Source of the DNA: Flavobacteriaceae bacterium
Lineage (GTDB): Bacteria > Bacteroidota > Bacteroidia > Flavobacteriales > Flavobacteriaceae
Direction of reading: 5' to 3'
DNA: 32,000 nucleotides
NCBI GenBank assembly: GCA_965224465.1
Contig: OZ245049.1
Coordinates: 4,980,001-5,012,000, forward strand
Position numbers and translations under genes: made by a program. Of this stretch, positions 2,839 through 31,497 are shown piece after piece (the first letter of the stretch is position 1; each line of letters opens with the position of its first letter). The notes beneath the pieces were generated by a model. The model made no database searches and was not told where the DNA came from. It was given only the letters and a program-made list of their open reading frames with translations.

Positions 2839-2849
2839 TTCTATTTAAA

Positions 2850-4544: not shown

Positions 4545-4578
4545 CGATTGTTAATACAGATACATATATAAGTTTTTT

Positions 4579-4613
4579 AAAGAGGTTGTCAATTTTATTG
4601 ACAACCTCTTTTT
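4579..4613 (+). terminator. rho-independent terminator after the first SusC/D pair
   Basis: A perfect 14-bp stem (aaagaggttgtcaa / ttgacaacctcttt) with a 5-nt loop runs into a T-rich stretch 35 bp after the SusD stop. Confidence 0.8.
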
Positions 4614-4838
4614 ATTTTATTTATTAATATTTAACTTAAAAATGGTAATTCATTTTGTTTTTTTCTGTTAGGGGTGTTAATTTTATCAATATCGTATCTA
4701 TTCCTTGTTTTTACTGCATATTTACTCGGATTATACAGCCTTCCTACAACGATGTAGAAGCGCTCTTGGTCGAAAACATTCCACCTAAAAGCTCAATTTT
4801 ACTACTTTTAACAAGATATTAACTCAAACAATTAATTA

Positions 4839-8249: not shown

Positions 8250-8266
8250 TATTAATATGAAATAAG

Positions 8267-10126: not shown

Positions 10127-10146
10127 TAGAATTCTAATTATTATTA

Positions 10147-10181
10147 AAAGAGGTTACTTATAAAGTAGCCTCTTTTTTTTT
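10147..10181 (+). terminator. rho-independent terminator after the second SusC/D pair
   Basis: The stem is aaagaggttactt / aagtagcctcttt (one G.T pair) with a 3-nt loop, followed by a run of 9 T. Confidence 0.8.
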
Positions 10182-10608
10182 GAAATATTTTTAAAAATAA
10201 AAAAGACGTTTAGGAGATTAAATCTGCCATTGGTCGAATTTTTTATAATATGTAGTGTAAATTAAATATCTTTATTTGGGTTTAAACCACAATTTGTTAA
10301 ATCCATTTTCATAAAGATTACGTATCGTTTTAGGACGGTACTACAAGTGTTATTTTGAATTAAGATAGATTAATAAAGGAGAATTAGTGATGTGGACTAG
10401 TTCTTCTTTTTGTTTGAAACCCATTTAGTTATAGCAGTTGTTTTTCTGTATAATGTTTACAAACAGAATTAAAAATTGTTAATTAATATTAAAAAACTTA
10501 AGTGCGTAAATAGCTTTAATTGTGGGATAGGTTTGAAAGAATTGATTGAAATAAAAAATATTTGAAGAAAGAAAAATCAACCTTTTTTAAGGTTTAAATT
10601 ATATATAA

Positions 10609-11538: not shown

Positions 11539-11643
11539 GGAATACTTTTTAGAACGTTCGTGTAATAAGTAAAATATAGAAATTACGTTCTCCATATTTA
11601 GAACGCAGCTGTTTTAACGAATTACTTTTGTTTGTATTGTTAT

Positions 11644-11677
11644 AAAAAAAATGCTCACTTTAAAAGTGAGCATTTTT
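11644..11677. terminator. bidirectional terminator between the convergent ROK and 11693..12331 genes
   Basis: A 10-bp stem (atgctcactt / aagtgagcat) is flanked by an A7 run on one side and a T5 run on the other. Confidence 0.75.
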
Positions 11678-11692
11678 AATGTCTAACCAAAT

Positions 11693-12331
11693 TTAGATCA
11701 TTTCTCCTAAAACGGGTTTTTTAGAGGCCCTTATAGTAGAAGTATTGTATCCTGAGAACTTTTTCATATAGTGCCTAATGCTTGTGCCATTGGCATCTTC
11801 AAATGCATGTGATCCTCCTGTTCTCAGGAATTTTTTAACATTTCCTGCGCCTGCTAAATGTGCAGCTGCAAGAATTCCGGATTCCGTTATTCTTACCCCG
11901 TTCATTCGTTTCCCAACACTTCGTTTGATATCTCTTCGTAGAATCCATTTATTTAACGAGCATAAAGCTATAAATGCATCCTCTTGAAGTTGAGGTGTGT
12001 TTAGAAACTTACGGGTATCGTAAATTTTGAACCTTTTTAAGGTCGATTTCCCAAATTGGTACTTTCCTAAGTAGCCTAAACTATTTACAACGGAATACTT
12101 TCCTTGAGATTCTTTAAAAGCAACCGCTTCTTTGAATCCTACAAATGAGTTTCCTGCAAATGGTATTTGAGATGTTTCTTCTTGTTCACTGGCTTCTAAA
12201 GCTAAAACGGTACTTACGGTATTTTCGTTGTAAGTAACATTATAAATAGAGGTGTTCTTCTTTTTCGTTAGTGCTAAAAACGAAAATATAAGTGTAACAA
12301 TTATTGTATACAGTATGTGTCTTTTCATCAT
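11693..12331 (-). CDS. secreted lysozyme-like / lytic-transglycosylase-like protein (weak call)
   Basis: It has an N-terminal hydrophobic signal/anchor. The spacing of KESQG ... GYLGKYQFG ... AAHLAGAG resembles the ES / GLMQ / AYNAG motifs of SLT-type domains. This is recognised by eye only. Confidence 0.4.
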   Translation of the reverse strand: MMKRHILYTIIVTLIFSFLALTKKKNTSIYNVTYNENTVSTVLALEASEQEETSQIPFAGNSFVGFKEAVAFKESQGKYSVVNSLGYLGKYQFGKSTLKRFKIYDTRKFLNTPQLQEDAFIALCSLNKWILRRDIKRSVGKRMNGVRITESGILAAAHLAGAGNVKKFLRTGGSHAFEDANGTSIRHYMKKFSGYNTSTIRASKKPVLGEMI

Positions 12332-12466
12332 TTTCAGGGTTTTAGGTTAAAATATCCCTTTAAAATTTCGAGGTGCAAAGATATATAAATATTTGTAATT
12401 AACAAGTGTTCATTGTTTTTTTATTTTTTATTGCTATTTTTAGCTATTGTGTTAGATGCTAGCTTT

Positions 12467-13501
12467 CTATCTTCGTACCCCTTGTTGGTTCAGCCATTGC
12501 TGATATTTTACTGCATTTCTATTGTGTTGCGACAACGTTTTCGCAAAAACATGTTTTCCAGGTGTATTTATATTGGCGCACATGTAAAAGTAATCGTGTT
12601 TTGTAGGGTTTAAAACGGCGTCAATAGCAGAAATATCTGGCATTCCAATAGGCCCTGGAGGTAAACCTTTGATTTTGTAGGTGTTGTAGTTTGATTCTAT
12701 TTTTAAATCTTTCAATAAGACTCGTTTGATAACCGTCTCTTGCCCTTTTAGAGCTTTGATACAGTATATAATTGTAGGGTCTGCTTGTAAAGGCCAACCG
12801 TTATTTAACCGATTCAAATATAATTGAGCAACTTGGGGACGTTCGCTAATAGCGGCGGTTTCTTTTTGAACAATAGCCGCTAAAGTACTTACTTGTATTG
12901 GCGTTAATCCTTGCTTTGATGCTTTTTCTTTTCTTTTACTATTCCAAAATCGAAGGTATTCTTTGTGCATTCGAAGCTTGAATTTTGACACAGAGGTATT
13001 CCAATAAAATTCATAAGAATTTGGAATATACATGGCTAGTGCAGTTGCTGTATTGAAATTGTTTTTGGATAAAAAAGAAGGTTCTTTAAATTCCGTTAGA
13101 ATACTTAAAGAGTCTGCTTCTATTTGTGCTGCAATACGACCCGCTAGTTTTTCTAAGGAATCTTGGTTATTAAAAGCTACTTTTACAGCTTTTTGCTTGC
13201 CACTTCTCAATAGGTTGATGACGCTGTTGTTGCTCATTCCTTTACGTATGAAATAGCGACCAGCCTTTATTTTTGAAGGATACTTCTTTTTGTTTGCGAC
13301 CCAATTTAATGGTTTTACTCGTTTTACAAAAGGGCGAAGTAAGTTTTGGACTTCGGCGTAATTAGCGCCTGTAGGAATGTATAAATAGCCTTCCTTAACG
13401 GTGTTTGGGCTGTAAATTTTGCTGTAATAGCTATAGGCTAAAACACTTGCTAAAATAAGTAATAGGGTACTTATTAGGAGAATGAGTTTTGTTTTATTCA
13501 T
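12467..13501 (-). CDS. mltG: endolytic murein transglycosylase MltG (YceG-like)
   Basis: It has a single N-terminal TM helix and is 344 aa. The C-terminal motif block LQADPTIIY ... YNTYKIKGLPPGPIGMPDISAIDAVLNP is characteristic of YceG/MltG. Confidence 0.85.
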   Translation of the reverse strand: MNKTKLILLISTLLLILASVLAYSYYSKIYSPNTVKEGYLYIPTGANYAEVQNLLRPFVKRVKPLNWVANKKKYPSKIKAGRYFIRKGMSNNSVINLLRSGKQKAVKVAFNNQDSLEKLAGRIAAQIEADSLSILTEFKEPSFLSKNNFNTATALAMYIPNSYEFYWNTSVSKFKLRMHKEYLRFWNSKRKEKASKQGLTPIQVSTLAAIVQKETAAISERPQVAQLYLNRLNNGWPLQADPTIIYCIKALKGQETVIKRVLLKDLKIESNYNTYKIKGLPPGPIGMPDISAIDAVLNPTKHDYFYMCANINTPGKHVFAKTLSQHNRNAVKYQQWLNQQGVRR

Positions 13502-14012
13502 GGGTGTTTATCAACTGAAATAATAATTCGTCTTTATAGGTGTTTTTTGTGTAGATCCAATCTTTCTTGCATCCTACTTCTTTGAATTTTTTTTGTGTAA
13601 ATAATTGGATGCTATGGTCGTTGTCTGTAGTAATGTTTGCATAGAGTTGATGTAATTGTAGTTGGTTAAAACTATACGAAATCAATAGGTCCAAAGCTTC
13701 ACTAGCATGTCCTTGATTTTTAAATTTTGGGAGTATAATAATTCCGATACCTGCTCTGTGGTGTAGTGGCTCAAAATCAAAAAGATCAATCATGCCTATG
13801 GGAGTATTGTTCAAGTCAATGACAAAACGTAGTTGCTGTGCTTCAAAAATACTTTGATGAGCATTGGAGATGTACTGTTTTAAAATATGTTTTGAAAAAG
13901 GACTTACTGTACCACTTATTTCCCAAAAATCTTGATTGTTTTCTGTATCAAATAAAAAGGGTAGATCTTCTGGTTCTAAAGCGCGAAGTTTGATGTTTTT
14001 TCCGTGTAACAT
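13494..14012 (-). CDS. GNAT-family N-acetyltransferase (RimJ/RimL-like)
   Basis: It is 172 aa, and HRAGIGIIILPKFKNQGHASEAL is an acetyl-CoA-binding (motif A-like) segment. It overlaps mltG by 8 nt, which indicates an operon. Confidence 0.7.
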   Translation of the reverse strand: MLHGKNIKLRALEPEDLPFLFDTENNQDFWEISGTVSPFSKHILKQYISNAHQSIFEAQQLRFVIDLNNTPIGMIDLFDFEPLHHRAGIGIIILPKFKNQGHASEALDLLISYSFNQLQLHQLYANITTDNDHSIQLFTQKKFKEVGCKKDWIYTKNTYKDELLFQLINTHE

Positions 14013-14016
14013 ATGT

Positions 14017-14796
14017 TTAAAAATCTAAATGTCCAAAAAATGTATTTACGGCAGGTCCTGTCAAAAATATGTTGGTATACACATCGTCTTCTATGGAAAA
14101 TGACACGTTTAACAATCCTCCTTCTACTTGTAGATCGATGCTTGTAGCTGTCGTTTTTTCTAGGTTATGGGCTATAATTGCGACAGCAGTAACCCCAGTT
14201 CCACAGGCGAGTGTTTCATCTTCTACGCCACGTTCGTAAGTACGTACTCTAAAGTGTGCATCGCCTGTTTGAGTGACAAAATTAATATTAGAACCTTCTT
14301 CTAAATACAAATCTCCATATCTGATAGCTGCTCCTTCTTCTTTTACGTTTACCAATGCTACATCCTCGCAAAACTGAACGTGATGTGGGGATCCTGTATC
14401 TAAAAAACTATAGCCTTCAAAATGTGTGAGGAGGTTAATATCTGCCATTTGTAAACTCACAATACCGTTTGTAATGGATGCGCTGTGCAATCCGTCAGCA
14501 GCATTAAAGGTGGTTTTTGTATCGATTACACCAATCATTTTTGCAAAGGCTACTGTGCAACGGCCTCCATTTCCACACATACTTCCTAGAGCACCATCGG
14601 CATTAAAATAAATCATTTTAAAATCACTTTTAGAATCATTTTCTAATAGAATTAATCCGTCAGCACCTACTCCAAAACGTCGGTCGCATAATTTGTTTAT
14701 TAATTTTTTGTTATCTTTTGGAAAATCCAATGATCTATTGTCAATCATAACAAAGTCGTTTCCCGTTCCTTGGTATTTGTAAAATTCTAGTTTCAT
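14017..14796 (-). CDS. dapF: diaminopimelate epimerase
   Basis: The motifs GTGNDFVMIDN, MCGNGGRC (first catalytic Cys) and LACGTGVTA (second catalytic Cys) are present. The protein is 259 aa. Confidence 0.92.
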   Translation of the reverse strand: MKLEFYKYQGTGNDFVMIDNRSLDFPKDNKKLINKLCDRRFGVGADGLILLENDSKSDFKMIYFNADGALGSMCGNGGRCTVAFAKMIGVIDTKTTFNAADGLHSASITNGIVSLQMADINLLTHFEGYSFLDTGSPHHVQFCEDVALVNVKEEGAAIRYGDLYLEEGSNINFVTQTGDAHFRVRTYERGVEDETLACGTGVTAVAIIAHNLEKTTATSIDLQVEGGLLNVSFSIEDDVYTNIFLTGPAVNTFFGHLDF

Positions 14797-14943
14797 TCGG
14801 ACAAATATACTAAAAATAGGAATAATTTTTGAGGTCTATGTGCTGTTCCTTTATATTTTGTTAAATTCAGTTAAGGTTTAGTTAACTGTAGTTAAAGATA
14901 ACTATTGAAGTATTTTAAGGCCTACTTTTGAGAAGGAATGTGA

Positions 14944-16362
14944 ATGGATTATAAATCCCTAAAATATAATATTATGAAGAAAATTGGAGAAATGTTGTTG
15001 GTTTCTATGTTAGGAGGTGCACTTACTCTTGCTGCATACGTTACGTTAGTGGATGGTGATACTTCATCTATCGAAGAAGTCAATCATTCAGAACAGGTCA
15101 ATCATCAAGTAAAGACTAATTTTAACCCTAGGGCTGTGGCTTCTTTTGAGAATACAGATTTCACACATGCAGCAGAGAAAACATTAAATGCTGTGGTTCA
15201 TGTAAAAAACACGGCTATTAAGACGTATTCAGATCCTTTTACCGAATATTTTCATGGAGGATCAAATGGTTTACAAAAAAGAGCTCAAATTGGTACGGGT
15301 AGTGGCGTTATAATTTCAGCAGATGGGTATATTATCACAAATAATCATGTGATTGATAATGCTACAGAAATTGAAATTACAATGGATAATAAAAAAACAT
15401 ACATTGCGGAATTGATAGGAACTGATATTAAAAATGATATTGCGCTGGTAAAGATAAAAGGAACTGATTTCCCGTATATTACTTTTGGAAATTCCGATGA
15501 TGTAAAAGTGGGAGAATGGGTATTGGCTGTTGGAAATCCTTACAATCTTACCTCAACCGTTACTGCAGGTATTATTAGTGCAAAAGGTCGTGATTTGAGT
15601 GGTAATTCCTCCATAGATTCTTTTCTGCAAACAGATGCTGCCGTAAATCCAGGAAACAGTGGAGGTGCTTTGGTAAATGTTCGTGGAGAGTTGATAGGGA
15701 TTAACACAGCAATTTCTTCACAAACGGGGTCGTTTATTGGCTATTCTTTTGCAGTACCTTCTAATATTGCCAAAAAAGTGATAGAGGATATTATGGAATA
15801 CGGTACAGTGCAACGTGCGTTGATTGGTATTTCTTACAGTACGCGTGGTAATGATCATTTTGAAGGTGTGAAAATTGGTGAAATTACTCCCAATGGAGGT
15901 GCTGATTTAGCGGGTTTAATTAAAGATGATATTATTACAAGAATCAATGAGGTGAAAATTACAGAATTCTCAGATTTAAGCGGTCAATTGAGTGCAAAAA
16001 GACCTGGGGATAGTGTAGAAGTGACTTTTTTGAGAAACGGTAAAGAATTGTCAAGAACAGTAATATTGACAAAAAACAATTTTAAGGAATTAAAAATATT
16101 AGGATTGATATTAAAGGATGTTGATAAGAAAGAAGGGAAGAAGAATGGTATAAATGGAGGCGCTAAAATTGCATCGGTCTCCAATAAAGACTTGGTGAAT
16201 TTAGGCGTAGAAAAAGGGTTTATCATTGTAAAAATAAATAAAAAAGAAGTGAGAAGTGCAGATGATGCCATTCAAATTATTTCTAGTAAATACGGAAAAG
16301 AAGTGATGTACATAGAAATGTTGAACAACCGTGGGCAAATAGAAAGGTATGTATTTAGATAA
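14944..16362 (+). CDS. htrA: HtrA/DegP/DegQ-family periplasmic serine protease with PDZ domain(s)
   Basis: The catalytic motifs TNNHV (His), NDIALVKI (Asp) and GNSGGAL (Ser) are present, with PDZ-like C-terminal repeats. The true start may be the second ATG at 14974 (MKKIGEMLLV... signal anchor). Confidence 0.9.
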   Translation: MDYKSLKYNIMKKIGEMLLVSMLGGALTLAAYVTLVDGDTSSIEEVNHSEQVNHQVKTNFNPRAVASFENTDFTHAAEKTLNAVVHVKNTAIKTYSDPFTEYFHGGSNGLQKRAQIGTGSGVIISADGYIITNNHVIDNATEIEITMDNKKTYIAELIGTDIKNDIALVKIKGTDFPYITFGNSDDVKVGEWVLAVGNPYNLTSTVTAGIISAKGRDLSGNSSIDSFLQTDAAVNPGNSGGALVNVRGELIGINTAISSQTGSFIGYSFAVPSNIAKKVIEDIMEYGTVQRALIGISYSTRGNDHFEGVKIGEITPNGGADLAGLIKDDIITRINEVKITEFSDLSGQLSAKRPGDSVEVTFLRNGKELSRTVILTKNNFKELKILGLILKDVDKKEGKKNGINGGAKIASVSNKDLVNLGVEKGFIIVKINKKEVRSADDAIQIISSKYGKEVMYIEMLNNRGQIERYVFR

Positions 16363-16385
16363 ATTGATTGATTATAATAGCTAGT

Positions 16386-16421
16386 AAAAAGTCCTTTCCA
16401 TTTTGGAGAGGATTTTTTTTT
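16386..16421 (+). terminator. rho-independent terminator after htrA
   Basis: The stem is tcctttcc / ggagagga (one G.T pair) with a 5-nt loop, followed by a run of 9 T. Confidence 0.7.
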
Positions 16422-16515
16422 GAAACATGCAGCGAAAACGTTTGAAATAGCTACTTTTGCCGAAAAACAACATTAATCGTCATTCCTATGAAAGTGGGAA
16501 TGTAAAACTCAAACA

Positions 16516-17955
16516 ATGCAAAACACGGAAGTTTACGAAAAAGAACTTGCTTTTCAAGCCAAACGCAGAAGAGCAACCGTTAATTTTATTAAAATTATTA
16601 GCGACTTTTGGTATGATGATACCATCGAATTGATTTTATTTAGAAACCAATTGCTCGATAGAAATGTGAGTGAAATTTTATCCTTGCTAGAATACGCAGG
16701 TGATTTTGTAGAGAAGCCTATTTCAATTTTTGATGCTTTGGAAATGGCGAATGCTATTAAAAAAATAAATTTACCTCCTGCCAAATTAGATATTGGTAAA
16801 TTGGTGTATGAGTTTCATTCAAGCCAGTCTTCCATCGGTGTTTTTATTGAAGGGAAGTTGAGCGGAGCTAAAAAAGCCAATGGATTTGAGCCTAGAGACG
16901 TTGTGCTTTATGGTTTTGGACGTATCGGACGCTTATTGGCTCGTGAGTTAATGACAAGGACGGGAAAAGGAAACTTGATGCGTTTAAGAGCTATTGTTAC
17001 ACGTGGTGAAATTACAGAAACTGTTTTGGAAAAACGTGCAGCATTGCTAAGAGACGACTCTGTTCATGGTGATTTTAGAGGGACAGTACAGACCAATATA
17101 GAAAAGAAAGCGCTTATTATCAATGGAACTACAGTTTATATTATTTCAGCCGATAAGCCAGAAGAGATAGATTATACCCAATACGGTATTCATAAAGCTT
17201 TGATTTTGGATAATACAGGGGTATTTAGAGATAAAGAAGCGCTGAGTAGACATCTAAAATCTAAAGGTGCAAGTAAAGTTATATTGACGGCGCCAGGGAA
17301 AGGAGTTCCAAATATAGTGTACGGAGTGAATCATTTAGAACACTCTCCGGATAACGTTGATATTTTTTCTGCGGCTTCTTGTACTACCAACGCTATTGCG
17401 CCAATATTGAAAACGATAGAAGAGAGTTTTGGAATAGAAAACGGGCATTTAGAGACGATACATGCTTATACCAACGATCAGAATTTGGTAGATAATATGC
17501 ATAGCAAATATCGTAGAGGACGTGCTGCTGCATTAAATATGGTTATTACAGAGACGGGTGCTGGAAAAGCAGTGGCTAAAGCGTACCCCATTTTAGAAGG
17601 GAAATTAACTTCCAATGCCATTCGAGTACCAGTTCCAAATGGTTCCTTGGCTATTTTAAATTTAAGGATTGTAAACGCAGCCAGTATTGAAACCGTAAAT
17701 CAAGCGGTAAAAAAATATGCATTGGAAGGAAGTTTGGTTGAACAGATTAAATATTCGAAAAGTAACGAACTGGTGTCTTCTGATATTGTAGGGGTTTCAG
17801 CACCATCTATCTATGATAGTAATGCTACTATTGCTACGGCAGATGGTAAAAGTATTGTGCTGTATGTTTGGTACGATAACGAATATGGATATAGCCATCA
17901 AGTAATGCGTTTGGCGCGCTATGTTTCCAAAGTAAGAAGGTTTACCTATTACTAG
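16516..17955 (+). CDS. gap: glyceraldehyde-3-phosphate dehydrogenase, long form with ~130-aa N-terminal extension
   Basis: The NAD-binding motif VLYGFGRIGR and the catalytic SCTTNA motif are present, along with C-terminal WYDNEYGYS. The protein is 479 aa. Confidence 0.9.
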   Translation: MQNTEVYEKELAFQAKRRRATVNFIKIISDFWYDDTIELILFRNQLLDRNVSEILSLLEYAGDFVEKPISIFDALEMANAIKKINLPPAKLDIGKLVYEFHSSQSSIGVFIEGKLSGAKKANGFEPRDVVLYGFGRIGRLLARELMTRTGKGNLMRLRAIVTRGEITETVLEKRAALLRDDSVHGDFRGTVQTNIEKKALIINGTTVYIISADKPEEIDYTQYGIHKALILDNTGVFRDKEALSRHLKSKGASKVILTAPGKGVPNIVYGVNHLEHSPDNVDIFSAASCTTNAIAPILKTIEESFGIENGHLETIHAYTNDQNLVDNMHSKYRRGRAAALNMVITETGAGKAVAKAYPILEGKLTSNAIRVPVPNGSLAILNLRIVNAASIETVNQAVKKYALEGSLVEQIKYSKSNELVSSDIVGVSAPSIYDSNATIATADGKSIVLYVWYDNEYGYSHQVMRLARYVSKVRRFTYY

Positions 17956-18033: not shown

Positions 18034-20055
<2,022 letters not shown>

Positions 20056-21759: not shown

Positions 21760-22413
21760 ATGAATAAAAAAATAGCCCTATTTATCTTTACAAGTGTAGC
21801 ATGCATAGATATGCTCGGAATTATTCTTGAAATTGAAGTACTACGATTTGTATTTAAACCTTTAATTCTACTGTCCTTAATGGCATTGTATAAGGTAAGT
21901 ACGAGTAATGGAATACACGCTCCCTATTTATTAGCCTTGGTGTTTTCTTTTTTTGGAGATGTTTTTTTGTTGTTTCAAGGGGATTTGTTTTTTATGTTAG
22001 GATTAGGAGCTTTTTTGATAGCGCATTTGTTTTTTATCAAACTCGTAGTTTTGTGGTGGAAGGAATTTAGATTGAGAAATTTACTTTTAACGGCGGTTCC
22101 TTTTGTGTTATTGGTTACAGGTTTGATTGTGTTTTTAAGAAGTTATTTAGATGAAATGTTTGTTCCTGTTGTTGTGTACGCCATGGTTATAGGTGCCTTT
22201 GGGACAGTGGCTACGATATTGTATCAGCAAAGAAAAACGAAAGCTGCATTTACCATGATGCTAGGTGCATTTGTATTTATGGTGTCAGATACCATCTTGT
22301 CTATCAATTTGTTTTACAAACCCATGATGCTGTTGAATATCTTAGTGATGTTTACGTATGTCCTAGCGCAGTACTTGATTTATAGTGCTGTTGTTTTGAA
22401 ACAGAAAATCTAA
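21760..22413 (+). CDS. YhhN-family (lysoplasmalogenase/TMEM86-like) integral membrane protein
   Basis: The 217-aa protein is hydrophobic almost throughout. It has the FSFFGDVFLL and GAFVFMVSDTILS motifs typical of YhhN. Confidence 0.75.
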   Translation: MNKKIALFIFTSVACIDMLGIILEIEVLRFVFKPLILLSLMALYKVSTSNGIHAPYLLALVFSFFGDVFLLFQGDLFFMLGLGAFLIAHLFFIKLVVLWWKEFRLRNLLLTAVPFVLLVTGLIVFLRSYLDEMFVPVVVYAMVIGAFGTVATILYQQRKTKAAFTMMLGAFVFMVSDTILSINLFYKPMMLLNILVMFTYVLAQYLIYSAVVLKQKI

Positions 22414-22595: not shown

Positions 22596-23786
22596 TTGCA
22601 AAAAACGATCATTGAAAAAAATACTCCAAATGCACTTACCCAATATGTAGGTAATTATGTGTGTAAGAATAATGAATTACAATTCTTTAATCATGCCGAA
22701 GGCTATGTAGAACCAGTCATTGCGAGCGGTAGCGCGGCAATCTCATTCTTTAACTATGTGTACCAGTACAAAGACCATTTAGGGAATATCAGACTGTCAT
22801 ACACAGATGCAGATGGGAATGGGACAATTAAACAGGATGAGATTATTGAAGAAAATAATTATTATCCCTTTGGACTTGAACATAAAGGATACAATAATGT
22901 TGTCAATGGTGCGGAAAACAACTACTACAATTATAACGGGAAAGAGCTTAACGAATCTTTAGGTTTGAATTTGTTAGAATATGAAGCGAGAAGTTATGAT
23001 CCAGCTATAGGAAGATGGACGAGTGTTGACCCGTTAGCTGATAAGTATTATAAATTTAGCCCTTATGTTTATGTTGGTAATAGTCCTACAATAGCAGTCG
23101 ACCCAGATGGAAAAAGAATACTATTTGTAAATGGATATTGGAATAGTTGGATTGGAGGTCTTATAGGTTCAAGTAATCTAGGTAAGAAATACTGGGGAAG
23201 TGGATTTACAAGTGCTGCTCAAAGATTTTTTGGAGATTATTCATCTGTTTCTGATTCTAATTATATTGATGGTTCTTCATCTTTTGGAGGAGATTCAAGT
23301 GGTGGCGGTAGAGAAAAAGATGGATATGCATATGCTAAAGCAAATTATACTACATTAACAGATGGTTTAGCAGAAGATGAAACCTTTAAACTTGTCACTC
23401 ATAGTGAAGGAGGTGCATATGGAGCAAGAGTTGCGAGATATCTAATAGAGAAAGGACATACCGTAGAAACCGTTCTACATTTATCTACAGATGAAGGAGA
23501 CGAATTCGAAACACCTGAAGAAGCAGATACTTATCAATTAAGTTATGGTGGAGATTGGGTAACTGGAAATAAAGAAATCAGTAAAGGTGTTGATATTATT
23601 GGTGTAGTTGATAAATATGAGAAGAAATCAGACAAAAATAAGTATGCTCACGGTTCTACTAAAGGTTCATCTGTGTTTAAGTCTGCCAAAGCTTTATTAA
23701 AAGCAGCAGCGTCAGGAGCGACAGGTGTTAATGTAACTGAAACAAAAAGTGGAATTAAATTTGAATTTATAAGAGATAATAATTAA
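22596..23786 (+). CDS. orphan RHS C-terminal fragment 1: RHS core plus alpha/beta-hydrolase (lipase/esterase-like) toxin domain
   Basis: The RHS core motifs YVYQYKDHLGNIRLSYTD, NNYYPFGL, RSYDPAIGRWTSVDPLA and the cleavage-type VDPDGK (23100..23114) are present. Downstream lie ILFVNG, the nucleophile elbow VTHSEGGAYG (Ser codon 23403..23405) and AHGS. The only start is a TTG, and the fragment lacks the upstream YD repeats, so it may not be translated. Confidence 0.75.
   Translation: MQKTIIEKNTPNALTQYVGNYVCKNNELQFFNHAEGYVEPVIASGSAAISFFNYVYQYKDHLGNIRLSYTDADGNGTIKQDEIIEENNYYPFGLEHKGYNNVVNGAENNYYNYNGKELNESLGLNLLEYEARSYDPAIGRWTSVDPLADKYYKFSPYVYVGNSPTIAVDPDGKRILFVNGYWNSWIGGLIGSSNLGKKYWGSGFTSAAQRFFGDYSSVSDSNYIDGSSSFGGDSSGGGREKDGYAYAKANYTTLTDGLAEDETFKLVTHSEGGAYGARVARYLIEKGHTVETVLHLSTDEGDEFETPEEADTYQLSYGGDWVTGNKEISKGVDIIGVVDKYEKKSDKNKYAHGSTKGSSVFKSAKALLKAAASGATGVNVTETKSGIKFEFIRDNN
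22638..22915 (+). repeat. conserved cassette block, copy 1 (3' half only)
   Basis: It aligns from TQYVGNY onward. Together with cassette 3 it shares the extension NVVNGAE beyond KHKGYN. Confidence 0.85.
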
Positions 23787-23790: not shown

Positions 23791-24105
23791 ATGACTAATA
23801 TTAGTAAAAACACTTATTTAACGGTTAATATTATACTGGTACTATTAGGTGCATATATTGTGTATTTTATATCCAATTTTTGGATTGGTAGCCAAGACCA
23901 ACACGAGATGGTTATTGACAACTCGGGAGTATCTTTTTTCTTTAAGAAGTTTGTTCTTAATTTAGCGGTAATAGCTCTTATAATAGGCTTTATGGCTATA
24001 GTTAATAAATTGCTTAAAAATAATAATATAAAAAAGACTTTATTATATAGTACTATTCTACTTATTGTATTGTCAATAGTAGCAATATCTTTTTCAATGA
24101 GTTAA
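23791..24105 (+). CDS. small 3-TM membrane protein, candidate immunity protein for cassette 1
   Basis: It is 104 aa with three hydrophobic helices. It starts 4 nt after the toxin stop and is followed by a strong terminator. Confidence 0.55.
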   Translation: MTNISKNTYLTVNIILVLLGAYIVYFISNFWIGSQDQHEMVIDNSGVSFFFKKFVLNLAVIALIIGFMAIVNKLLKNNNIKKTLLYSTILLIVLSIVAISFSMS

Positions 24106-24420: not shown

Positions 24421-24975
24421 AAAACCAAGGCAGCCATGTTGTGGTTTTTTACATGCTGGCTACACATACATTTCCCTCCTCCTCCTTGTCAAAACCTACG
24501 GATTCAAAAACGGCACAAATACAGGGGGCGAATACCTACGACAAAAACGGAAACATAATCTCCGATGCCAATAAAGGGATTAGCGCCATAACCTACAATT
24601 ATTTAAGCCTACCCGTCAAAGTAGTTTTTGGAACTAACCGTTTTATTGATTATATTTACGATGCCTCAGGTGTAAAACAACAAAAAGTAGTAACTGAGGG
24701 AAGTTCTTTAACAACCACGCAATACGTAGGTAATTATATTTATGAGAATAACAACCTTCAATTCTTTAATCATGCAGAGGGCTATGTAGAACCAGTCATT
24801 GCGAGCGGTAGCGCGGCAATCTCATCCTTTAACTATGTGTACCAATACAAAGATCATTTAGGTAATATTCGACTGTCATACACAGATGCAGATGGGAATG
24901 GGACAATTAAACAGGATGAGATTATTGAAGAAAATAATTATTATCCCTTTGGACTGAAACATAAAGGGTATAATA
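24421..24975 (+). repeat. conserved cassette block, copy 2
   Basis: It is a near-identical direct repeat of 26766..27375, 28768..29350 and 30902..31497. Its 3' half also matches 22638..22915. Confidence 0.9.
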
Positions 24976-25169
24976 ACGGAATAAGCTCTTTGGGTAACTC
25001 GGTTGCGCAACGCTATAAGTTTGGAGGAAAGGAATATGATGAGAGTTTTGATGGTACTTTAAATACCTATGATTTTGGAGCTAGGAATTATGATCCTGCA
25101 ATTGGTAGGTGGATGAATATTGACCCACTGGCTGACCAAATGCGTAGACACTCTCCGTATAATTATGCT
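24441..25169 (+). pseudogene. orphan RHS C-terminal fragment 2, truncated by IS insertion
   Basis: The YD repeats and RHS core (YDKNGNIISDANKG ... YQYKDHLGNIRLSY ... NYDPAIGRWMNIDPLA ... SPYNYA) run straight into the IS left end at 25170. The ATG conserved in the other cassettes is ATA here (24555..24557). No DPxG motif or toxin domain remains. Confidence 0.85.
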
Positions 25170-26437
25170 GGTTCTACCACGAATGTTGTGGAATTAGTAT
25201 CTTTACCTCAAAAAGATGTTTTCAACAAAACTGTTTGAGTTACTATTAAATTTAGGAACAGATTGGAAGGTTTGTGATGTAAAAGTTAATTATCTAGATT
25301 CAGAAATAGACATATTTATAGACTATATACCAACTAAAGCATCTTGTCCAGACACAGAAGAGTTGTGTAGTATTTATGATCATAGAAGCACTCGTAGATG
25401 GCGTCATTTAGACACCTTACAATTCAAAACCTACATTAATTGTAAAGTCCCAAGAGTTAAGTCAACTAAAGGCGTTAAAACGATAACGGTACCATGGGCT
25501 AGTAATTTTTATCGTCATACTTATCTATTTGAAAGGCTAACTATAGACTTATTGAAAGCAACAAAAAATCAAAGTCAAACGGCTAAACTATTACGTTGTG
25601 GCTTTAATATTGTAAACCGAATCATACATACTTCTGTAAAAAGAGGGCTTTCTAAGAGGTCAGAAAACCAAAAATTTTCTCATCTAAGTATTGATGAAAA
25701 AGCTTTCAAAAAGGGGCATAACTATGTGACTGTAGTTAGTGATCCGAGTACAGGAATTGTAATTGATGTTGCAGAAGGCAGGACTAAAAAAGAGACTAAA
25801 ATTTTACTTAAAAAGATTGTAAATGAGATAAATAGAGATGAAGTAGAGACCGTTTCTATTGACATGTGGAAAGCCTATTTATCATCAGTAAAAGAAGTTT
25901 TTCCAAATGCGAAAGTTGTCCATGATCGATTTCACTTAGTAAAGTACTTAAATGATGCTATAGATAAAGTTCGCAGACGTGAAGTGAAAAAAGAAGAAGG
26001 TCTTAAAAATAGTAGATTTGTATTGCTTAAAAATAAAGAAAACTTAACGGATAAACAAAGAGTATTATTTGACAAAATACAAGAAGCAAATTATCAAGCA
26101 AGTAAAGCATGGTTAGCTAAAGAAAATTTTAAAAATATATTTAGAAGCCCATCTTTGAAAGTTGCTTTAGGTCTTTTTATCAAATGGGGAGCAAGTGTTT
26201 TGGAAACAAAAATTAAAGAAATTATAAAGGTTGCTAAGATGTTTAATAACCATATAGAAGGGGTGTGTAATGCAATGATTGAGACTGCTTCTAATGCAAT
26301 GGCAGAAAGACTAAATGGTAAAATACAAGAAATAAAATCTATCGGTAAAGGTTACAGAACTTTCGCTAATTTTAGAAGTGCAATACTATTTTTTAATGGA
26401 GGTTTAGATTTGTACCCACACAAATCGTGGTAGAACC
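25170..26437 (+). mobile_element. ISL3-family insertion sequence (~1.27 kb)
   Basis: The terminal inverted repeats are GGTTCTACCACGAATGTTGTGG (25170..25191) and the reverse complement of 26416..26437, GGTTCTACCACGATTTGTGTGG (19/22 identical). They enclose a single transposase ORF. Confidence 0.88.
25216..26433 (+). CDS. ISL3-family DDE transposase
   Basis: The motifs IDEKAFKKGHNYVTVVSD, SIDMWKAYLSSVKEVFPNAKVVHDRFHLVKYLNDAIDKVRRRE and AERLNGKIQEIKSIGKGYRTFANFRSAILFFNG are typical ISL3 transposase blocks. The protein is 405 aa. Confidence 0.88.
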   Translation: MFSTKLFELLLNLGTDWKVCDVKVNYLDSEIDIFIDYIPTKASCPDTEELCSIYDHRSTRRWRHLDTLQFKTYINCKVPRVKSTKGVKTITVPWASNFYRHTYLFERLTIDLLKATKNQSQTAKLLRCGFNIVNRIIHTSVKRGLSKRSENQKFSHLSIDEKAFKKGHNYVTVVSDPSTGIVIDVAEGRTKKETKILLKKIVNEINRDEVETVSIDMWKAYLSSVKEVFPNAKVVHDRFHLVKYLNDAIDKVRRREVKKEEGLKNSRFVLLKNKENLTDKQRVLFDKIQEANYQASKAWLAKENFKNIFRSPSLKVALGLFIKWGASVLETKIKEIIKVAKMFNNHIEGVCNAMIETASNAMAERLNGKIQEIKSIGKGYRTFANFRSAILFFNGGLDLYPHKSW

Positions 26438-26723: not shown

Positions 26724-26780
26724 CCACCATCGCTACCGCGATATTCTATCTCGTGGCGTCAACGTTAAGCCACGCAGCAA
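26702..26780. repeat. GC-rich junction module, junction 2 (single Y unit)
   Basis: The unit aataaccaccatcgctaccgcgatattctatctcgtggcgtcaacgttaagccacgcagc is homologous to the Y units of junctions 1, 3 and 4. Confidence 0.8.
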
Positions 26781-27375
26781 TTAAAACTACTAAAACCACA
26801 GCAGAAATGTTGTGGTTTTTACATGTTGGCTACACATACATTTCCCTCCTCCTTCCTCTCCTCCTTGTCAAAACCTACGGCTTTAAAGACGGCACAAATA
26901 CAGGCAACGACTATACCTACGACAAAAACGGAAACATGATCTCCGATGCCAATAAAGGGATTAGCGCCATAACCTACAATTATTTAAACCTACCCATCAA
27001 AGTAAGTTTTGGAACTAACCGTTTTATTGATTATATTTACGATGCCTCAGGAGTAAAACAACAAAAAGTAGTAACTGAGGGAAGTTCTTTAACAACCACG
27101 CAATACGCAGGTAATTATATTTATGAGAATAACAACCTTCAATTCTTTAATCATGCAGAGGGCTATGTAGAACCAGTCATTGCGAGCGGTAGCGCGGCAA
27201 TCTCATCCTTTAACTATGTGTACCAATACAAAGATCATTTAGGTAATATTCGACTGTCATACACAGATGCAGATGGGAATGGGACAATTAAACAGGATGA
27301 GATTATTGAAGAAAATAATTATTATCCCTTTGGACTTAAACATAAAGGGTACAATAATGTCGTGAATGGTGCGGA
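26766..27375 (+). repeat. conserved cassette block, copy 3
   Basis: It is a direct repeat of the other cassette blocks, and the differences are mostly third-codon-position changes. Confidence 0.9.
26796..26820 (+). terminator. terminator-like hairpin plus T-run inside junction 2
   Basis: The hairpin ccacagca gaaa tgttgtgg (8 bp, one G.T pair) is followed by T5. The same element occurs at 28798..28823 and 30931..30956. Confidence 0.6.
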
Positions 27376-28258
27376 AAGTAAGTACAAATACCACGGAAAA
27401 GAGCATCAAGAAGAATTAGGTTTAAATTGGTACGATTATGGAGCAAGGAATTACCAACCTGATATTGGAAGATGGTTTAATCCAGATCCTTTAAGTGATG
27501 AGTTTCCAGAATGGTCACCTTATAACTTTGTTAAAAATAATCCTTCTTTTTATATCGACCCAACAGGATTAGCACCTGAAACTATTTATGAAGATATAAA
27601 TAGTGGAGAAACAGTTGAAGTAGATGATGGTATTGACAAGACTATAAAAGTTAATAGTTCTAATTTTCAGAAAGCGAAATCTTTTGCTAATGAAATCAAT
27701 TCCAATCCAGATGCAAATGGTATGACATCTATTGGTGTTAGTAGAGATGTAGCTGATGGATATAATGAGTTTTATAATAGTGTTAACTCTTATGATGGTT
27801 TTAGTTTATCAAACTTATATGATTATGCTTTTGTCCAACCTGAACTAACTGTTACAGGAGAAGTTACAGGTTCAGCAGGTGCTTTAGAATATGTTTCTGT
27901 TGGTGTAGGTGGTTTTATCTTAAAAAGTTTAGGAAATAACCTTGCAAGAAATAGTTCAAAAATATTGAATTTCACTTCGAAACAATTACAAGCTAAATTT
28001 AAACATGCAGTAGATTTTGGTGTAAAAGGAAGTTGGAATAAAGGAGCAGGTAGTAAATTTAGTTCAGTTATTAACCAACATATTAATTCTTCGAGTGTTC
28101 AAATTATACAAGGAACTTATAGAGGTAATCCTGCAGTTCATTATTTAAATTCGAAATCTGGATTAAATGTAATTGCAAATCCAAATGGAACTTTTGTTAG
28201 TGGGTGGAAACTTAATTCTAAACAATTAGAAAATGTAATTAAGCATGGAGGATTATAA
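26936..28258 (+). CDS. orphan RHS C-terminal fragment 3: YD repeats plus RHS core plus colicin-D-like (tRNase-type) toxin domain
   Basis: It starts at the conserved ATG (MISDANKG), and the frame is also open upstream to 26753. The RHS core ends at IDPTGL (27557..27571). The C-terminal ~110 aa (QLQAKFKHAVDFGVKG ... IQGTYRGNPAVHYLNSKSGLNVIANPNGTFVSGWKLNSKQL) resembles my recollection of the colicin D nuclease family. Confidence 0.8.
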   Translation: MISDANKGISAITYNYLNLPIKVSFGTNRFIDYIYDASGVKQQKVVTEGSSLTTTQYAGNYIYENNNLQFFNHAEGYVEPVIASGSAAISSFNYVYQYKDHLGNIRLSYTDADGNGTIKQDEIIEENNYYPFGLKHKGYNNVVNGAESKYKYHGKEHQEELGLNWYDYGARNYQPDIGRWFNPDPLSDEFPEWSPYNFVKNNPSFYIDPTGLAPETIYEDINSGETVEVDDGIDKTIKVNSSNFQKAKSFANEINSNPDANGMTSIGVSRDVADGYNEFYNSVNSYDGFSLSNLYDYAFVQPELTVTGEVTGSAGALEYVSVGVGGFILKSLGNNLARNSSKILNFTSKQLQAKFKHAVDFGVKGSWNKGAGSKFSSVINQHINSSSVQIIQGTYRGNPAVHYLNSKSGLNVIANPNGTFVSGWKLNSKQLENVIKHGGL

Positions 28259-28780: not shown

Positions 28781-29350
28781 AATTAAAACTACTAAAACCA
28801 CAGCAGAAATGTTGTGGTTTTTTACATGCTGGCTACACATACATTTCCCTCCTCCTCCTCCTTGTCAAAACCTACGGATTCAAAGACGGCACAAATACAG
28901 ACAACGACTATACCTACGACAAAAACGGAAACATGATCTCCGATGCCAATAAAGGGATTAGCGCCATAACCTACAATTATTTAAACCTACCCACCAAAGT
29001 AAGTTTTGGAACTAACCGTTTTATTGATTATATTTACGATGCCTCAGGTGTAAAGCAACAAAAAGTAGTAACTGAGGGAAGTTCTTTAACAACCACGCAA
29101 TACGCAGGTAATTATATTTATGAAAATAACAACCTTCAATTCTTTAATCATGCAGAGGGCTATGTAGAGCCAGTTATTGCGAGCGGTAGCGCGGCAATCT
29201 CATCCTTTAACTATGTGTACCAATACAAAGACCATTTAGGGAATATCAGACTGTCATATACTGATGCAGATGGGAATGGGACAATTAAACAGGATGAAAT
29301 TATTGAAGAAAATAATTATTATCCCTTTGGACTGAAACATAAAGGGTATA
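28768..29350 (+). repeat. conserved cassette block, copy 4 (homology with copy 2 continues to ~29510)
   Basis: It is a direct repeat. The extra ~160 bp (SSLGNSVAQRYKFGGKEYDESFDGTLNTYDFGARNYDPAIGRWMNIDPLA) is shared only with cassette 2. Confidence 0.9.
28798..28823 (+). terminator. terminator-like hairpin plus T-run inside junction 3
   Basis: The hairpin is ccacagca gaaa tgttgtgg, followed by T6. Confidence 0.6.
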
Positions 29351-30294
29351 ATTTTAATACATCTTCTTTAGGGAATTCGGTAGCGCAACGCTATAAGTTT
29401 GGAGGAAAGGAATATGATGAAAGTTTTGATGGCACTTTAAATACCTATGATTTTGGAGCAAGGAACTATGATCCTGCAATTGGTAGGTGGATGAATATTG
29501 ACCCGCTTGCGGAATTAATGATGACATATAGTCCTTATAATTATGCATTTAATAATCCGATTTATTATATTGATTCAGACGGAATGTCGCCCTATAATTC
29601 GGTAATTAAGTCTGATTATTATAGAGATAAGAACAACAATGTATGGTATGATTCTAATGTTTTTGGCCCTAGTGATGTTCCTAATGGAGGGACTTATATG
29701 GGACCCACATATTATGATGAAATAAATGGAACATTTTGGGATGTAAATGGGGATCCTCACACTAGAGTGCAGGCTTTAAATGAAGTAGTTGTAACAGGAA
29801 CATCTTCTAGTGCTTTTACTATTTATGGAATCGGTACAGATACTTCAGTAGAAAAATCTAGTGGTTTTACTACTCATGGGGCTGGTACAGATACTTCAGG
29901 TAGAGAGGGTATTACTACTCATGGAATAGGTTATGATGATTTTACTCCTTTAGGTGGCGGAGGTAAATCAAGTTCTGTTTTAGCTCAAATTTTAAGATTT
30001 ATTAGTGGTTTATTCTCAACGGTAAATAATGTAAATAAAGTATTTGAACCTAATGTGTCTACAATGGAGAACATTGAAAAAGAGGAATCAAAGAAAACAC
30101 CAGGAAATGTGAAAGTTGTTTTAAAACATTATCTAAAATCATTTCATAAAAAAGATGGAATGGGCAATGTTTTTCATAAAATTGATTCTATAGTTCGAGA
30201 TACTGTTGAAATTAAAACTTTTAACATAGAGAAAACAAAAGATTCAGTTAGAAATCAAAATGCAAATAGAAAAAGGAGAGTAAGAGAATGGTAA
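28933..30294 (+). CDS. orphan RHS C-terminal fragment 4: YD repeats plus RHS core plus C-terminal domain of unknown type
   Basis: It starts at the conserved ATG (MISDANKG). The RHS core ends at IDSDGM (29572..29586). The ~235-aa C-terminus has three tandem [FI]T[IT][YH]G[IA]G[TY]D[TD] motifs, a Gly run, a hydrophobic helix and a Lys/Arg-rich tail. I recognise no catalytic motif. Confidence 0.8.
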   Translation: MISDANKGISAITYNYLNLPTKVSFGTNRFIDYIYDASGVKQQKVVTEGSSLTTTQYAGNYIYENNNLQFFNHAEGYVEPVIASGSAAISSFNYVYQYKDHLGNIRLSYTDADGNGTIKQDEIIEENNYYPFGLKHKGYNFNTSSLGNSVAQRYKFGGKEYDESFDGTLNTYDFGARNYDPAIGRWMNIDPLAELMMTYSPYNYAFNNPIYYIDSDGMSPYNSVIKSDYYRDKNNNVWYDSNVFGPSDVPNGGTYMGPTYYDEINGTFWDVNGDPHTRVQALNEVVVTGTSSSAFTIYGIGTDTSVEKSSGFTTHGAGTDTSGREGITTHGIGYDDFTPLGGGGKSSSVLAQILRFISGLFSTVNNVNKVFEPNVSTMENIEKEESKKTPGNVKVVLKHYLKSFHKKDGMGNVFHKIDSIVRDTVEIKTFNIEKTKDSVRNQNANRKRRVREW

Positions 30295-30317
30295 TTTTAA
30301 TTAAAAAAAACATAATT

Positions 30318-30830
30318 ATGTATAAATATTTTTATTCATTTATCCTAGCATTAGTTATTGTTATTGGCTGTAATAATAGAAACCCCAGCATTAAAGAATC
30401 TAATATAAAAAGTGAAGAAGTAGTAAAATCTAATAATTCATTCCAAATTATTGAAAAGAAAAAAACAGAGTACAATGAGTATATAGGATTGATTGAGTTA
30501 AGTGACACTATATATATTGGAAAGAACGTTGGAAAAATTGTTAATTATAAGCCAAGAAGGAGTGATATCGATTATTTATTATCAGTTATTATTGAAAACG
30601 AATATGATAATGGCAGAATAGTTAAAGATACATTTAGTGATGGCACATTAGCCCCTTGGTTTGGGGTCTATGCAAACAAGATTGGTTTCAAAAAAATTAG
30701 AGGGACTATTTTAGAAGAAGCTCTGAATGACGATAAAAGTAAATTTGATAGCGTTTTACGAATTGAAAGAACTTTTATTCATTTCGTAAAAGAAGTGTAT
30801 GTAATGGATAGTATTTTCAGGGTAGAGTAA
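30318..30830 (+). CDS. lipoprotein, candidate immunity protein for cassette 4
   Basis: The internal start MYKYFYSFILALVIVIGC gives a signal peptide with a lipobox Cys. The listed start at 30288 overlaps the toxin stop (ATGGTAA) and is the alternative start. Confidence 0.55.
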   Translation: MYKYFYSFILALVIVIGCNNRNPSIKESNIKSEEVVKSNNSFQIIEKKKTEYNEYIGLIELSDTIYIGKNVGKIVNYKPRRSDIDYLLSVIIENEYDNGRIVKDTFSDGTLAPWFGVYANKIGFKKIRGTILEEALNDDKSKFDSVLRIERTFIHFVKEVYVMDSIFRVE

Positions 30831-30907: not shown

Positions 30908-31497
30908 AACAAGCAATTAAAACAACAAAACCACAGCAGTAAGCTGTGGTTTTTTTATATGTTGGCTACACATACATTTCCCTCCTCCTCCTTGTCATTT
31001 CCATAAAGGAAAGACAAAACCTACGGATTCAAAGACGGCACAAATACAGGCAACGTATACCTACGACAAAAACGGAAACATGATCTCCGATGCCAATAAA
31101 GAGATTAGCGCCATAACCTACAATTATTTAAACCTACCCGTCAAAGTAGTTTTTGGAACTAACCGTTTTATTGATTATATTTACAATGCCTCAGGAGTAA
31201 AACAACAAAAAGTAGTAACTGAGGGAAGTTCTTTAACAACCACGCAATACGCGGGTAATTATATTTATGAGAATAACAACCTTCAATTCTTTAATCATGC
31301 AGAGGGCTATGTAGAACCAGTTATTGCGAGCGGTAGCGCGGCAATCTCATCCTTTAACTATGTGTATCAATACAAAGACCATTTAGGGAATATCAGACTG
31401 TCATACACAGATGCAGATGGGAATGGGACAATTAAACAGGATGAAATTATTGAAGAAAATAATTATTATCCCTTTGGACTGAAACATAAGGGGTATA
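30902..31497 (+). repeat. conserved cassette block, copy 5
   Basis: It is a direct repeat of the other blocks. It contains a 19-bp palindromic insertion (atttccataaaggaaagac) after the CCT tract and a 2-nt deletion near 31055. Confidence 0.9.
30931..30956 (+). terminator. terminator-like hairpin plus T-run inside junction 4
   Basis: The hairpin ccacagc agtaa gctgtgg is followed by T7. The loop differs from junctions 2 and 3, and the G.T pair is now G-C, so the stem is preserved. Confidence 0.6.

Follow-up and report, generated by a model that had tools for sequence, protein, structure and literature searches.

Polymorphic toxins of the Rhs/YD-repeat type, whose orphan tip-immunity cassettes are described from Enterobacteria, Pseudomonas and Bacteroidales, share a common plan: a Rhs-associated core, a DPxG-type motif, a variable C-terminal tip, and an immunity gene directly downstream. 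The orphan cassettes stand in tandem arrays that share core-encoding DNA, allowing recombination, and the tips are classically delivered by a type VI secretion system (T6SS) or by other contact-dependent systems. TonB-dependent bacteriocins (colicins B, D, Ia and M, the S-type pyocins, and pesticin) carry a short TonB box, a mimic of the TonB box of a transporter, in front of the killing domain and within a stretch rich in Gly, Ser and Asn. The periplasm is the site of action of several of them, and these are matched by periplasmic immunity proteins (ColM/Cmi, pesticin/Pim). The gene pair considered here, called cassette 4, lies near the end of a 32,000-nt stretch of DNA ("the window") from a Flavobacteriaceae bacterium (assembly GCA_965224465.1, contig OZ245049.1, positions 4,980,001 to 5,012,000, forward strand). 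It has traits of both groups. Cassette 4 is read here as an orphan Rhs tip/immunity module whose toxin would act in the cell envelope, would be neutralized by a lipoprotein, and would carry a mimic of a TonB box; as a whole, this explanation stands about evenly between being right and being wrong.

The toxin open reading frame (ORF, 28933-30294) encodes 453 aa, of which residues 219-453 (235 aa) form the tip that follows IDSDGM. A first-pass annotation, made from the sequence alone, had described an uncharacterized toxin tip and a lipoprotein partner at this position, and the features it listed are all present, at or near the places described. The parts of the cassette are as follows.

28933-29586, forward strand: orphan 3' fragment of a Rhs core, with YD-repeat remnants, the Rhs-associated core (TIGR03696) and PIYYIDSDGM; DNA 83-97% identical to that of the other cassettes of the window (repeat families D1/D2)
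29587-29775, forward strand: module A, a Tyr/Asn/Gly/Pro-rich beta module (DYY..YDxNVxGPxDVPxGxTYxGPTYxD..TGTFWDxNG); AlphaFold2 (AF2) predicted local distance difference test score (pLDDT) about 80 for tip residues 10-45
29776-29799, forward strand: TonB-box-like motif LNEVVVTG, matching a SusC TonB box
29800-29949, forward strand: Ser-rich linker and three tandem Gly-rich units, closing in an S-I-D-x-D-D-type motif (here GIGYDD); from Tandem Repeats Finder (TRF) and a repeat search
29950-30042, forward strand: GGGG hinge and conserved amphipathic helix (family consensus N.F..FLR....L.S); from alignments, hydropathy and AF2
30043-30102, forward strand: motif C, FEPNVSTMENIEKEESKKTP (family consensus KPNESTMExKVEEEAKNxP), the best-conserved stretch and the end of the constant core
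30103-30294, forward strand: variable basic tail of 63 aa, with the stop codon; net charge +9 (30103-30291), predicted beta-beta-alpha
30288-30830, forward strand: predicted immunity lipoprotein, starting at ATG 30288 or at the internal Met 30318; lipobox Cys codon at 30369-30371

A rare family of Rhs tips

Searches of Pfam, NCBIfam, PHROGs and PADLOC, together with phmmer and profile searches of the PDB, yielded no credible family for tip residues 219-453, with no match at threshold, and the tip contains no Cys-His, GxSxG or lysozyme-type catalytic signature. Foldseek, run with a low-confidence model of the tip, returned matches with E values of 0.25 or worse, an output that amounts to noise. 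These results bear out the original impression that no known toxin fold is present. The lipocone toxins, which attack lipid head groups (PMC12419801), were also considered, and the mixed alpha/beta prediction for the tip offers no hint of a four-helix cone.

Relatives of the tip are few. A word-indexed homologue search found none, and only an exhaustive phmmer search recovered any: among 1.84 billion representatives there were 19 matches, consisting of the query, two compositional artefacts, and 16 real relatives, nearly all of which are Rhs tips. P0019 and P0032 were dropped as relatives, being eukaryote-like Ser/Pro-rich repeat proteins with many matched stretches, a sign of compositional similarity. 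Ten matches, several of them labelled "RHS repeat-associated protein", came from a profile search covering 5.8 billion clusters, and scans of species-representative genomes and metagenome contigs added the loci L014, L019 and L020. Long Rhs proteins (P0017, 1220 aa; P0023, 590 aa) end in this domain, and so do orphans. Thus it recurs at the C-termini of Rhs proteins, and neither of the sequence-based outcomes that the first-pass annotation had named as fatal to its idea, a match to a known family or a lack of recurrence as a toxin tip, was observed. Where the source of a relative is named, it is Flavobacteriaceae, Lutibacter or a Bacteroidota metagenome-assembled genome (MAG). Judged by these comparisons, the tip is a rare, previously undescribed family of putative toxin/immunity pairs, so far found mainly in Flavobacteriaceae-type sequences.

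The putative immunity lipoprotein

The gene downstream of the toxin can begin at ATG 30288, which overlaps the toxin stop codon TAA at 30292-30294 (ATGGTAA); the more likely start is Met 30318. The overlap and the lipoprotein signal that had been pointed out here are both confirmed. The lipobox reads VIGC, its Cys is invariant in 12 homologues, and the product is predicted to be lipidated. There are 13 homologues of this partner, 52-100% identical, and a lipobox is found in all of them. At each of the 11 loci with a readable gene downstream of the toxin, that gene encodes a lipoprotein, and in all 11 partners a hydrophobic stretch leads up to [S/G]C. The tip therefore recurs with the same kind of neighbour. 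Nine of the partners (subfamilies A5-A7) were compared by profile and share one common beta-sandwich domain; hhalign joins the subfamily of the cassette 4 partner to the partners of other tips with 93.5% probability (E 2e-7), and the longer partners, which have extra N-terminal repeats, with 78% and 65%.

AF2 models the partner as a signal peptide, a disordered tether of about 35 aa, and an all-beta, Ig-like sandwich (pLDDT 66 overall, about 60-89 per 10-residue block in the core). Foldseek searches with this model returned generic Ig-like sandwiches only, and no specific inhibitor family.

Two homologues of the immunity protein, P0008 and P0010, are encoded in toxin-less arrays of at least 12 small genes on the same strand, many of which encode lipoproteins. 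The array around P0008 (L001:1-8400, GCA_051751125.1, a Bacteroidota MAG) has at least 5 genes with lipoboxes, and between its genes lies a conserved repeat of about 150 nt (...GTCCTGCGGACAATCACGC.CGCCAGCTCGCACAGTTTTTATACGAGACGTT...). An array of the same kind is present in L002. The layout of L001 looks like an integron-type or recombinase-associated acquired interbacterial defence (rAID)-type cassette array of orphan immunity genes. Orphan immunity genes in acquired-defence islands of Bacteroidales have such a layout (cf. PMC10470768). Taken together, the lipoprotein partners, their shared domain and the orphan-immunity-like arrays support a role in immunity and an extracytoplasmic site of neutralization.

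Joint exchange of tail and immunity gene

The first-pass annotation had proposed a candidate new toxin family. That reading is supported, but the tip is not a single unit: behind a constant core lies a tail that can be swapped, and it is the tail that co-varies with the immunity gene. In the family alignment, the last 57-74 residues diverge fast beyond the conserved KPNESTMExKVEEEAKNxP. For 11 toxin/immunity pairs, the identity of the tails correlates with that of the immunity proteins with a Spearman coefficient of 0.57 (nominal p 7e-6, from 55 non-independent pairwise comparisons of 11 loci), whereas for the identity of the core (helix plus motif) the coefficient is 0.04.

Two loci from the same metagenome, L019 and L020, display the junction. 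Their core proteins are 100% identical, their tails 38% and their immunity proteins 51%. At the DNA level, identity is 95-100% through the codon after EAKNVP, then 58-68% across tail and immunity gene, and beyond the latter it is back at 90-100%. Cassette 4 itself shares its tail with L011/P0020 (47% identical) more closely than its core (only 40%), and its immunity protein is 64% identical to that of L011 over the last 125 residues (55% by BLASTP). The breakpoint in L019/L020, together with the tail and immunity protein shared with L011, indicates that tail and immunity gene form an exchangeable sub-cassette. KPNESTME..EAKNVP marks the junction of this sub-cassette and the site of recombination.

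A TonB-box-like motif within the tip

Seven residues of the tip, LNEVVVT, are identical to the TonB-box region of the SusC-like transporter encoded in the same window, the plug of which begins with ESLNEVVVTALG (nt 52-75); SusC then continues with A, the toxin with G. In all six frames the window contains the pattern nowhere else, and in the 179 kb of DNA examined, [DNEP]EVVV is present only in these toxins and in that SusC gene. Within the family the consensus around the box is LDEVVV(T/S)(G/A), the best-conserved short element in the N-terminal half of the tip. An alignment of 100 SusC proteins of B. thetaiotaomicron gives the TonB-box consensus as DEVVV(V/T/I) (PMC10350073). Deletion or mutation of the box in Bt1763 (81-VDEVVV-86) leads to a defect in growth on levan like that caused by deletion of SusD (PMC7782687), and 115-DAVVV-119 of ButC is needed for import of the BfUbb toxin (PMC11467351).

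The box is retained in P0028, P0030 and P0036, in which an unrelated 28-residue segment replaces module A, and some tips with different payloads carry it too (P0024; P0025, which has a glycine-zipper end). In cassette 4, S, N, G, T, D and Q make up 64% of the 45 residues past the box, compared with 37% in the rest of the tip; for the family the values are 51-69% and 30-39% elsewhere, and the region has a pLDDT below 50 in the tip model. LNEVVVTG in this Ser/Asn/Gly-rich context suggests a colicin-like mode of import, although the toxin forms the tip of Rhs proteins and is not a stand-alone bacteriocin with a receptor-binding domain of its own. A recent capture of SusC TonB-box DNA by the toxin gene was considered and ruled out: 19 of 24 nt are identical, and the differences fall at synonymous sites. 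Such differences point to mimicry or convergence at the level of protein, not to capture of a gene fragment. The motif earlier called linker-like is present, but it is not just a linker: it equals the SusC TonB-box consensus of Bacteroidota.

Other features of the tip

The Rhs-associated core (TIGR03696) spans aa 129-218 (nt 29317-29586; 53.5 bits, cutoff 32.5). It ends in PIYYIDSDGM (aa 209-218, nt 29557-29586), a DPxG-type motif that corresponds to D(P/x)xG(M/L) at the same boundary in the relatives and is predicted to be a cleavage-type (autoproteolysis) motif. Both the shell and an N-terminal trafficking domain are absent from the ORF, which begins inside the last YD repeats and is preceded by in-frame stops.

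Module A is also present in P0024, P0025, P0026, L021 and L022, each time with a different C-terminus. Its family profile (29614-29780) matches residues 53-109 of 1hzg, the catalytic-domain chain of CNF1, with an E value of 0.006 (FYDNTVGPNGIPTLNTYTGE aligned with YDPNVxGPDDVPxGxTYIGP); this unconfirmed lead could reflect a shared small motif or a compositional match. In L021 (56-1627), module A is followed by a degenerate box, LEGVVAIA, and a glycine-zipper C-terminus, and the next gene encodes a 175-aa protein with two predicted transmembrane helices. L021 would thus hold another envelope toxin/immunity pair, one built behind the N-terminal module that it shares with cassette 4, and membrane-located immunity is therefore seen with some other module A toxins as well.

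The Gly-rich units lie at 29815-29865 (FTIYGIGTDTSVEKSSG), 29866-29910 (FTTHGAGTDTSGREG) and 29911-29949 (ITTHGIGYDDFTP). TRF reports a period of 51 nt with 1.9 copies (matches 83%, score 142), and the repeat search gives 43 nt at 84% identity (family D11). Units 1 and 2 are identical at 27 of 33 nt, and unit 3 matches the others at 20-21 of 30 nt, a level reached by 2 of 507 comparable in-frame window pairs of the same coding region. Units 1 and 2 are the product of a recent 51-nt tandem duplication, and unit 3 is older. The relatives have two units only (FTIWGxGxxxSGxxG and TTxHSIxHxD). The triplication, once taken as a hallmark of the tip, is thus a lineage-specific duplication and not a family signature.

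The hinge, LGGGGK (29950-29967), leads into the helix SSSVLAQILRFISGLFSTVNNVNKV (29968-30042), which has a hydrophobic moment of 1.6 and a mean hydropathy of 0.9 and is predicted by AF2 at tip residues 131-152. In motif C, T159, M160 and E167 are invariant and S158 is nearly so in the family alignments. The AF2 model of the tip, built from an alignment of 18 sequences, has a pLDDT of 51 and is confident only for tip residues 10-45; elsewhere it shows, at low confidence, the order helix, helix, strand, strand, helix.

A possible mechanism and its alternatives

Under the proposed explanation, recombination would place the tip on a full-length Rhs protein, which would be delivered to competing Bacteroidota. 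The tip would act outside the cytoplasm, in the periplasm or the envelope, because the immunity protein is a lipoprotein, and this lipid-anchored, Ig-like protein would bind the variable tail and so neutralize the toxin. LDEVVV(T/S)(G/A) would mimic the TonB box of SusC: the released, unfolded tip would engage the TonB of the victim and be pulled through a TonB-dependent (SusC-type) transporter, as group-B colicins and pyocins are. The toxin itself would be a soluble periplasmic effector that relies on its conserved acidic motifs; SIDxDD, NESTME and EEE could belong to an enzyme, metal-dependent or glycosidase-like, or form a binding site. The boldest form of this idea is that some Bacteroidota Rhs toxins are not injected but enter in the fashion of colicins, the tip threading a SusC-type transporter under the pull of TonB as a two-part periplasmic toxin (constant acidic core and swappable basic tail) whose tail is captured by a tethered Ig-like lipoprotein. 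This broader proposition must be regarded as rather doubtful.

Several observations count against the explanation. The statistic for co-variation of tail and immunity protein comes from comparisons that are not independent, two of the three links between immunity subfamilies are only 65-78% probable, and the predicted fold of core plus tail is poor (pLDDT 51). The sequence of the lipoprotein fits an orientation toward either the periplasm or the cell surface. In L022, a partial module A belongs to a toxin whose partner lacks a signal peptide, so module A does not always mean periplasmic action. The match to the TonB box is a short motif of 6-8 residues, it lies 29-69 residues from the predicted processed N-terminus (59-69 in most members), and in most members it sits behind a module of about 60 aa that AF2 folds with confidence. 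The TonB boxes of colicins and pyocins lie nearer to a disordered N-terminus. Finally, cassette 4 is an orphan without shell or secretion domain, in a window without a full-length rhs gene, and may never be expressed.

The shortness and the position of the motif are also what one would expect if the toxin/immunity family were the same, but LDEVVV were only a structural beta-strand or linker, for example one that packs in the Rhs shell or helps unfolding. The tip would then reach the periplasm by a contact-dependent machine (T6SS subtype iii or a different export route for Rhs proteins), and TonB would play no part. This alternative is in keeping with the classical delivery of Rhs tips, and a literature search gave no paper linking TonB boxes to Rhs tips. 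However, motif and SusC consensus agree at every residue, the flanking L and T[G/A] among them, and the motif is conserved whatever precedes it, while elsewhere in the 179 kb it is found only in the SusC TonB box. In L011, moreover, a full-length Rhs-like gene (1539-4391) directly follows a toxin/immunity pair of the family, and its product has a Sec-type signal peptide (MRKLYYYVVFFVLLSLSFKGFTQ) at its start, not an N-terminus of the PAAR or VgrG-adaptor type. Such a start speaks against T6SS as the obligatory route for at least some Rhs proteins of these organisms, and it hints at an export route other than T6SS for Rhs proteins like this one. A purely structural role for the motif is thus plausible without being the probable outcome.

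The first-pass annotation suggested that the toxin may be membrane-active. Such a toxin, or a pore former, would approach the inner membrane from the periplasm and use its amphipathic helix and cationic tail to insert into it or disrupt it. In favour of this are the conserved helix after the flexible GGGG hinge and the +9 tail, which could bind anionic lipids. Clear glycine-zipper membrane toxins (P0025, L021) also bear module A. Against this stand the lack of any hydrophobic stretch of transmembrane length (the highest 19-residue Kyte-Doolittle mean is 1.2), the lack of a glycine zipper, and the presence of a single amphipathic helix. Immunity proteins for pore formers are typically integral membrane proteins, as the two-helix partner predicted for the glycine-zipper toxin of L021 would be; the cassette 4 partner is instead a tethered beta-sandwich of the soluble, Ig-like type. 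Membrane activity is for these reasons disfavoured, and a pore former is an unlikely explanation. Less likely again is an evolutionary relic, a silent and non-deliverable fragment whose toxin ORF has no present function and which is kept for an immunity gene that guards against the toxins of relatives. The orphan state of the cassette, with no shell, trafficking domain or main rhs gene in the window, would be explained, as would the survival of immunity homologues alone in toxin-less arrays, and cassette 2 of the same array is already disrupted by an ISL3 transposase. On the other hand, nothing interrupts the 453-codon ORF, its overlap with the immunity gene is of the usual kind, all the motifs conserved in the family are retained, and its core-encoding DNA, up to 97% identical to that of the neighbouring cassettes, is of a kind that fits recombination into an expressed rhs gene.

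If the explanation by an envelope-acting toxin with a TonB-box mimic holds, contact-dependent Rhs weapons and TonB-parasitizing bacteriocins, the two main paradigms of protein warfare in Gram-negative bacteria, would be joined in one molecule. A TonB-box mimic offers a concrete candidate answer to how tips from Rhs proteins that lack T6SS adaptor domains cross the outer membrane of a victim, above all in Bacteroidota; the motif would also predict target range by pointing to the transporter that is hijacked. Whatever the route of entry, the family enlarges the catalogue of polymorphic toxins by a putative toxin domain and an immunity domain, both of them new, the toxin being a compact candidate killing module of about 115 aa that probably acts in the periplasm and bears no recognizable catalytic signature. 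It also provides a clear natural example of second-tier cassette exchange, in which tail and immunity gene are swapped behind a conserved junction peptide.

The cassette array and its surroundings

The window is a segment of a Bacteroidota chromosome. It opens with two SusC/SusD pairs (16-10126), followed by housekeeping genes: an htrA-like gene, a GAPDH-like gene, ligA (18052-20055) and a YhhN gene (21760-22413). From 22596 to the end of the window there are five orphan Rhs cassettes in tandem, each consisting of the shared core-encoding DNA, a tip of its own, and a small partner gene; among the ORFs of the window there is no full-length rhs gene or long Rhs ORF. The cassettes are set apart by a conserved, terminator-like hairpin, which bounds cassette 4 on both sides.

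28794-28859, forward strand: inter-cassette element, consisting of the hairpin AAAACCACAGCAG..TGTGGTTTTTT and a junction sequence; repeat family D4, found upstream of cassettes 2-5
30927-30953, forward strand: terminator-like hairpin closing cassette 4, an 11-bp stem followed by a T run; it scores as an intrinsic terminator and belongs to D4

The repeat search gives four copies of this 66-nt element (terminator hairpin plus ACATGCTGGCTACACATACATTTCCCTCCTCCTCCT), at 24421-24486, 26791-26856, 28794-28859 and 30927-30992. Cassette 5 starts directly 3' of the hairpin at 30927-30953. The hairpin encodes the peptide MLWFF, with which P0016, from an unrelated metagenome, begins; thus the element travels with orphan cassettes in other genomes too.

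The other cassettes carry tips of different kinds. The tip of cassette 1 (22596-23786) has no Pfam match and contains a nucleophile-elbow-like motif, THSEGG, and may be a lipase/esterase-type effector; its partner (23791-24105, 104 aa) has the look of a multi-pass membrane protein. Cassette 2 (24441-25238) is broken just past the core domain by the ISL3-family transposase (25216-26433; NF033550, E 2e-87). Cassette 3 (26753-28258) ends in a colicin-D domain (PF11429, E 4e-25), and its partner is a 79-aa protein without a signal peptide. About 95 residues past DPTGL, this colicin-D-type tip contains QPELTVTGEVTGSAG, a second TonB-box-like beta-strand motif, which is followed by Gly/Ser-rich sequence.

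In other genomes, orphan Rhs-tip and immunity cassettes (L003:386-7369, L004:139-6787, L017:2691-9847 and 10100-16905, and L018) directly follow a conserved module: a helix-turn-helix gene on the opposite strand, a PF27228 protein of about 515 aa, and two tyrosine recombinases, with an ORF6N gene in L004, L017 and L018. In L017 the whole unit of recombinase module and cassette is tandemly repeated. The toxin ORFs of L017, L018 and the short contigs of P0030/P0033 start with MGCKRLNTDFF.FLEIVHSKKS..EEKK.INYYPFGL. Such a start looks like a junction into the end of the Rhs core, and the module may be part of a mobile element that carries or swaps Rhs tips.

Comparison with known systems

The described orphan Rhs cassettes are among the closest known systems. 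Cassette 4 departs from them in its tip, which lies outside the described families and is itself nested, in the lipoprotein nature of its immunity protein, and in the lack of a full-length rhs gene upstream of the array in the window. The acquired interbacterial defence (AID) and rAID arrays of orphan immunity genes in Bacteroidales are resembled by the long same-strand arrays of small toxin-less genes that include P0008 and P0010; these, in contrast, come from marine or environmental Bacteroidota MAGs.

The periplasm-acting T6SS effectors (Tae/Tai, Tge/Tgi, Tle/Tli, Tse3/Tsi3) are likewise paired with immunity proteins that combine a signal for export or lipidation with a small, beta-rich domain for binding, which implies an extracytoplasmic target. 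No similarity to them in sequence or fold was found for cassette 4, whose tip lacks Cys-His, GxSxG and lysozyme-type signatures.

With the TonB-dependent bacteriocins, cassette 4 shares a short TonB-box motif in sequence rich in Gly, Ser and Asn. The residues past the box resemble the Gly-rich, disordered translocation regions of colicins, but in most members a confidently folded module comes before it. Unlike theirs, its box has the Bacteroidota SusC form (DEVVV), is located inside a Rhs tip at 29-69 residues from the predicted new N-terminus, and is a match at the level of sequence only. The nested modularity, finally, recalls the bipartite CdiA-CT toxins, in which an entry domain and a toxin are exchanged at VENN; here the junction peptide would be KPNESTME..EAKNVP. 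However, CdiA belongs to another secretion family, the variable part of the cassette 4 tip is only about 65 aa long, and its immunity protein is predicted to be exported and lipid-anchored rather than cytoplasmic.

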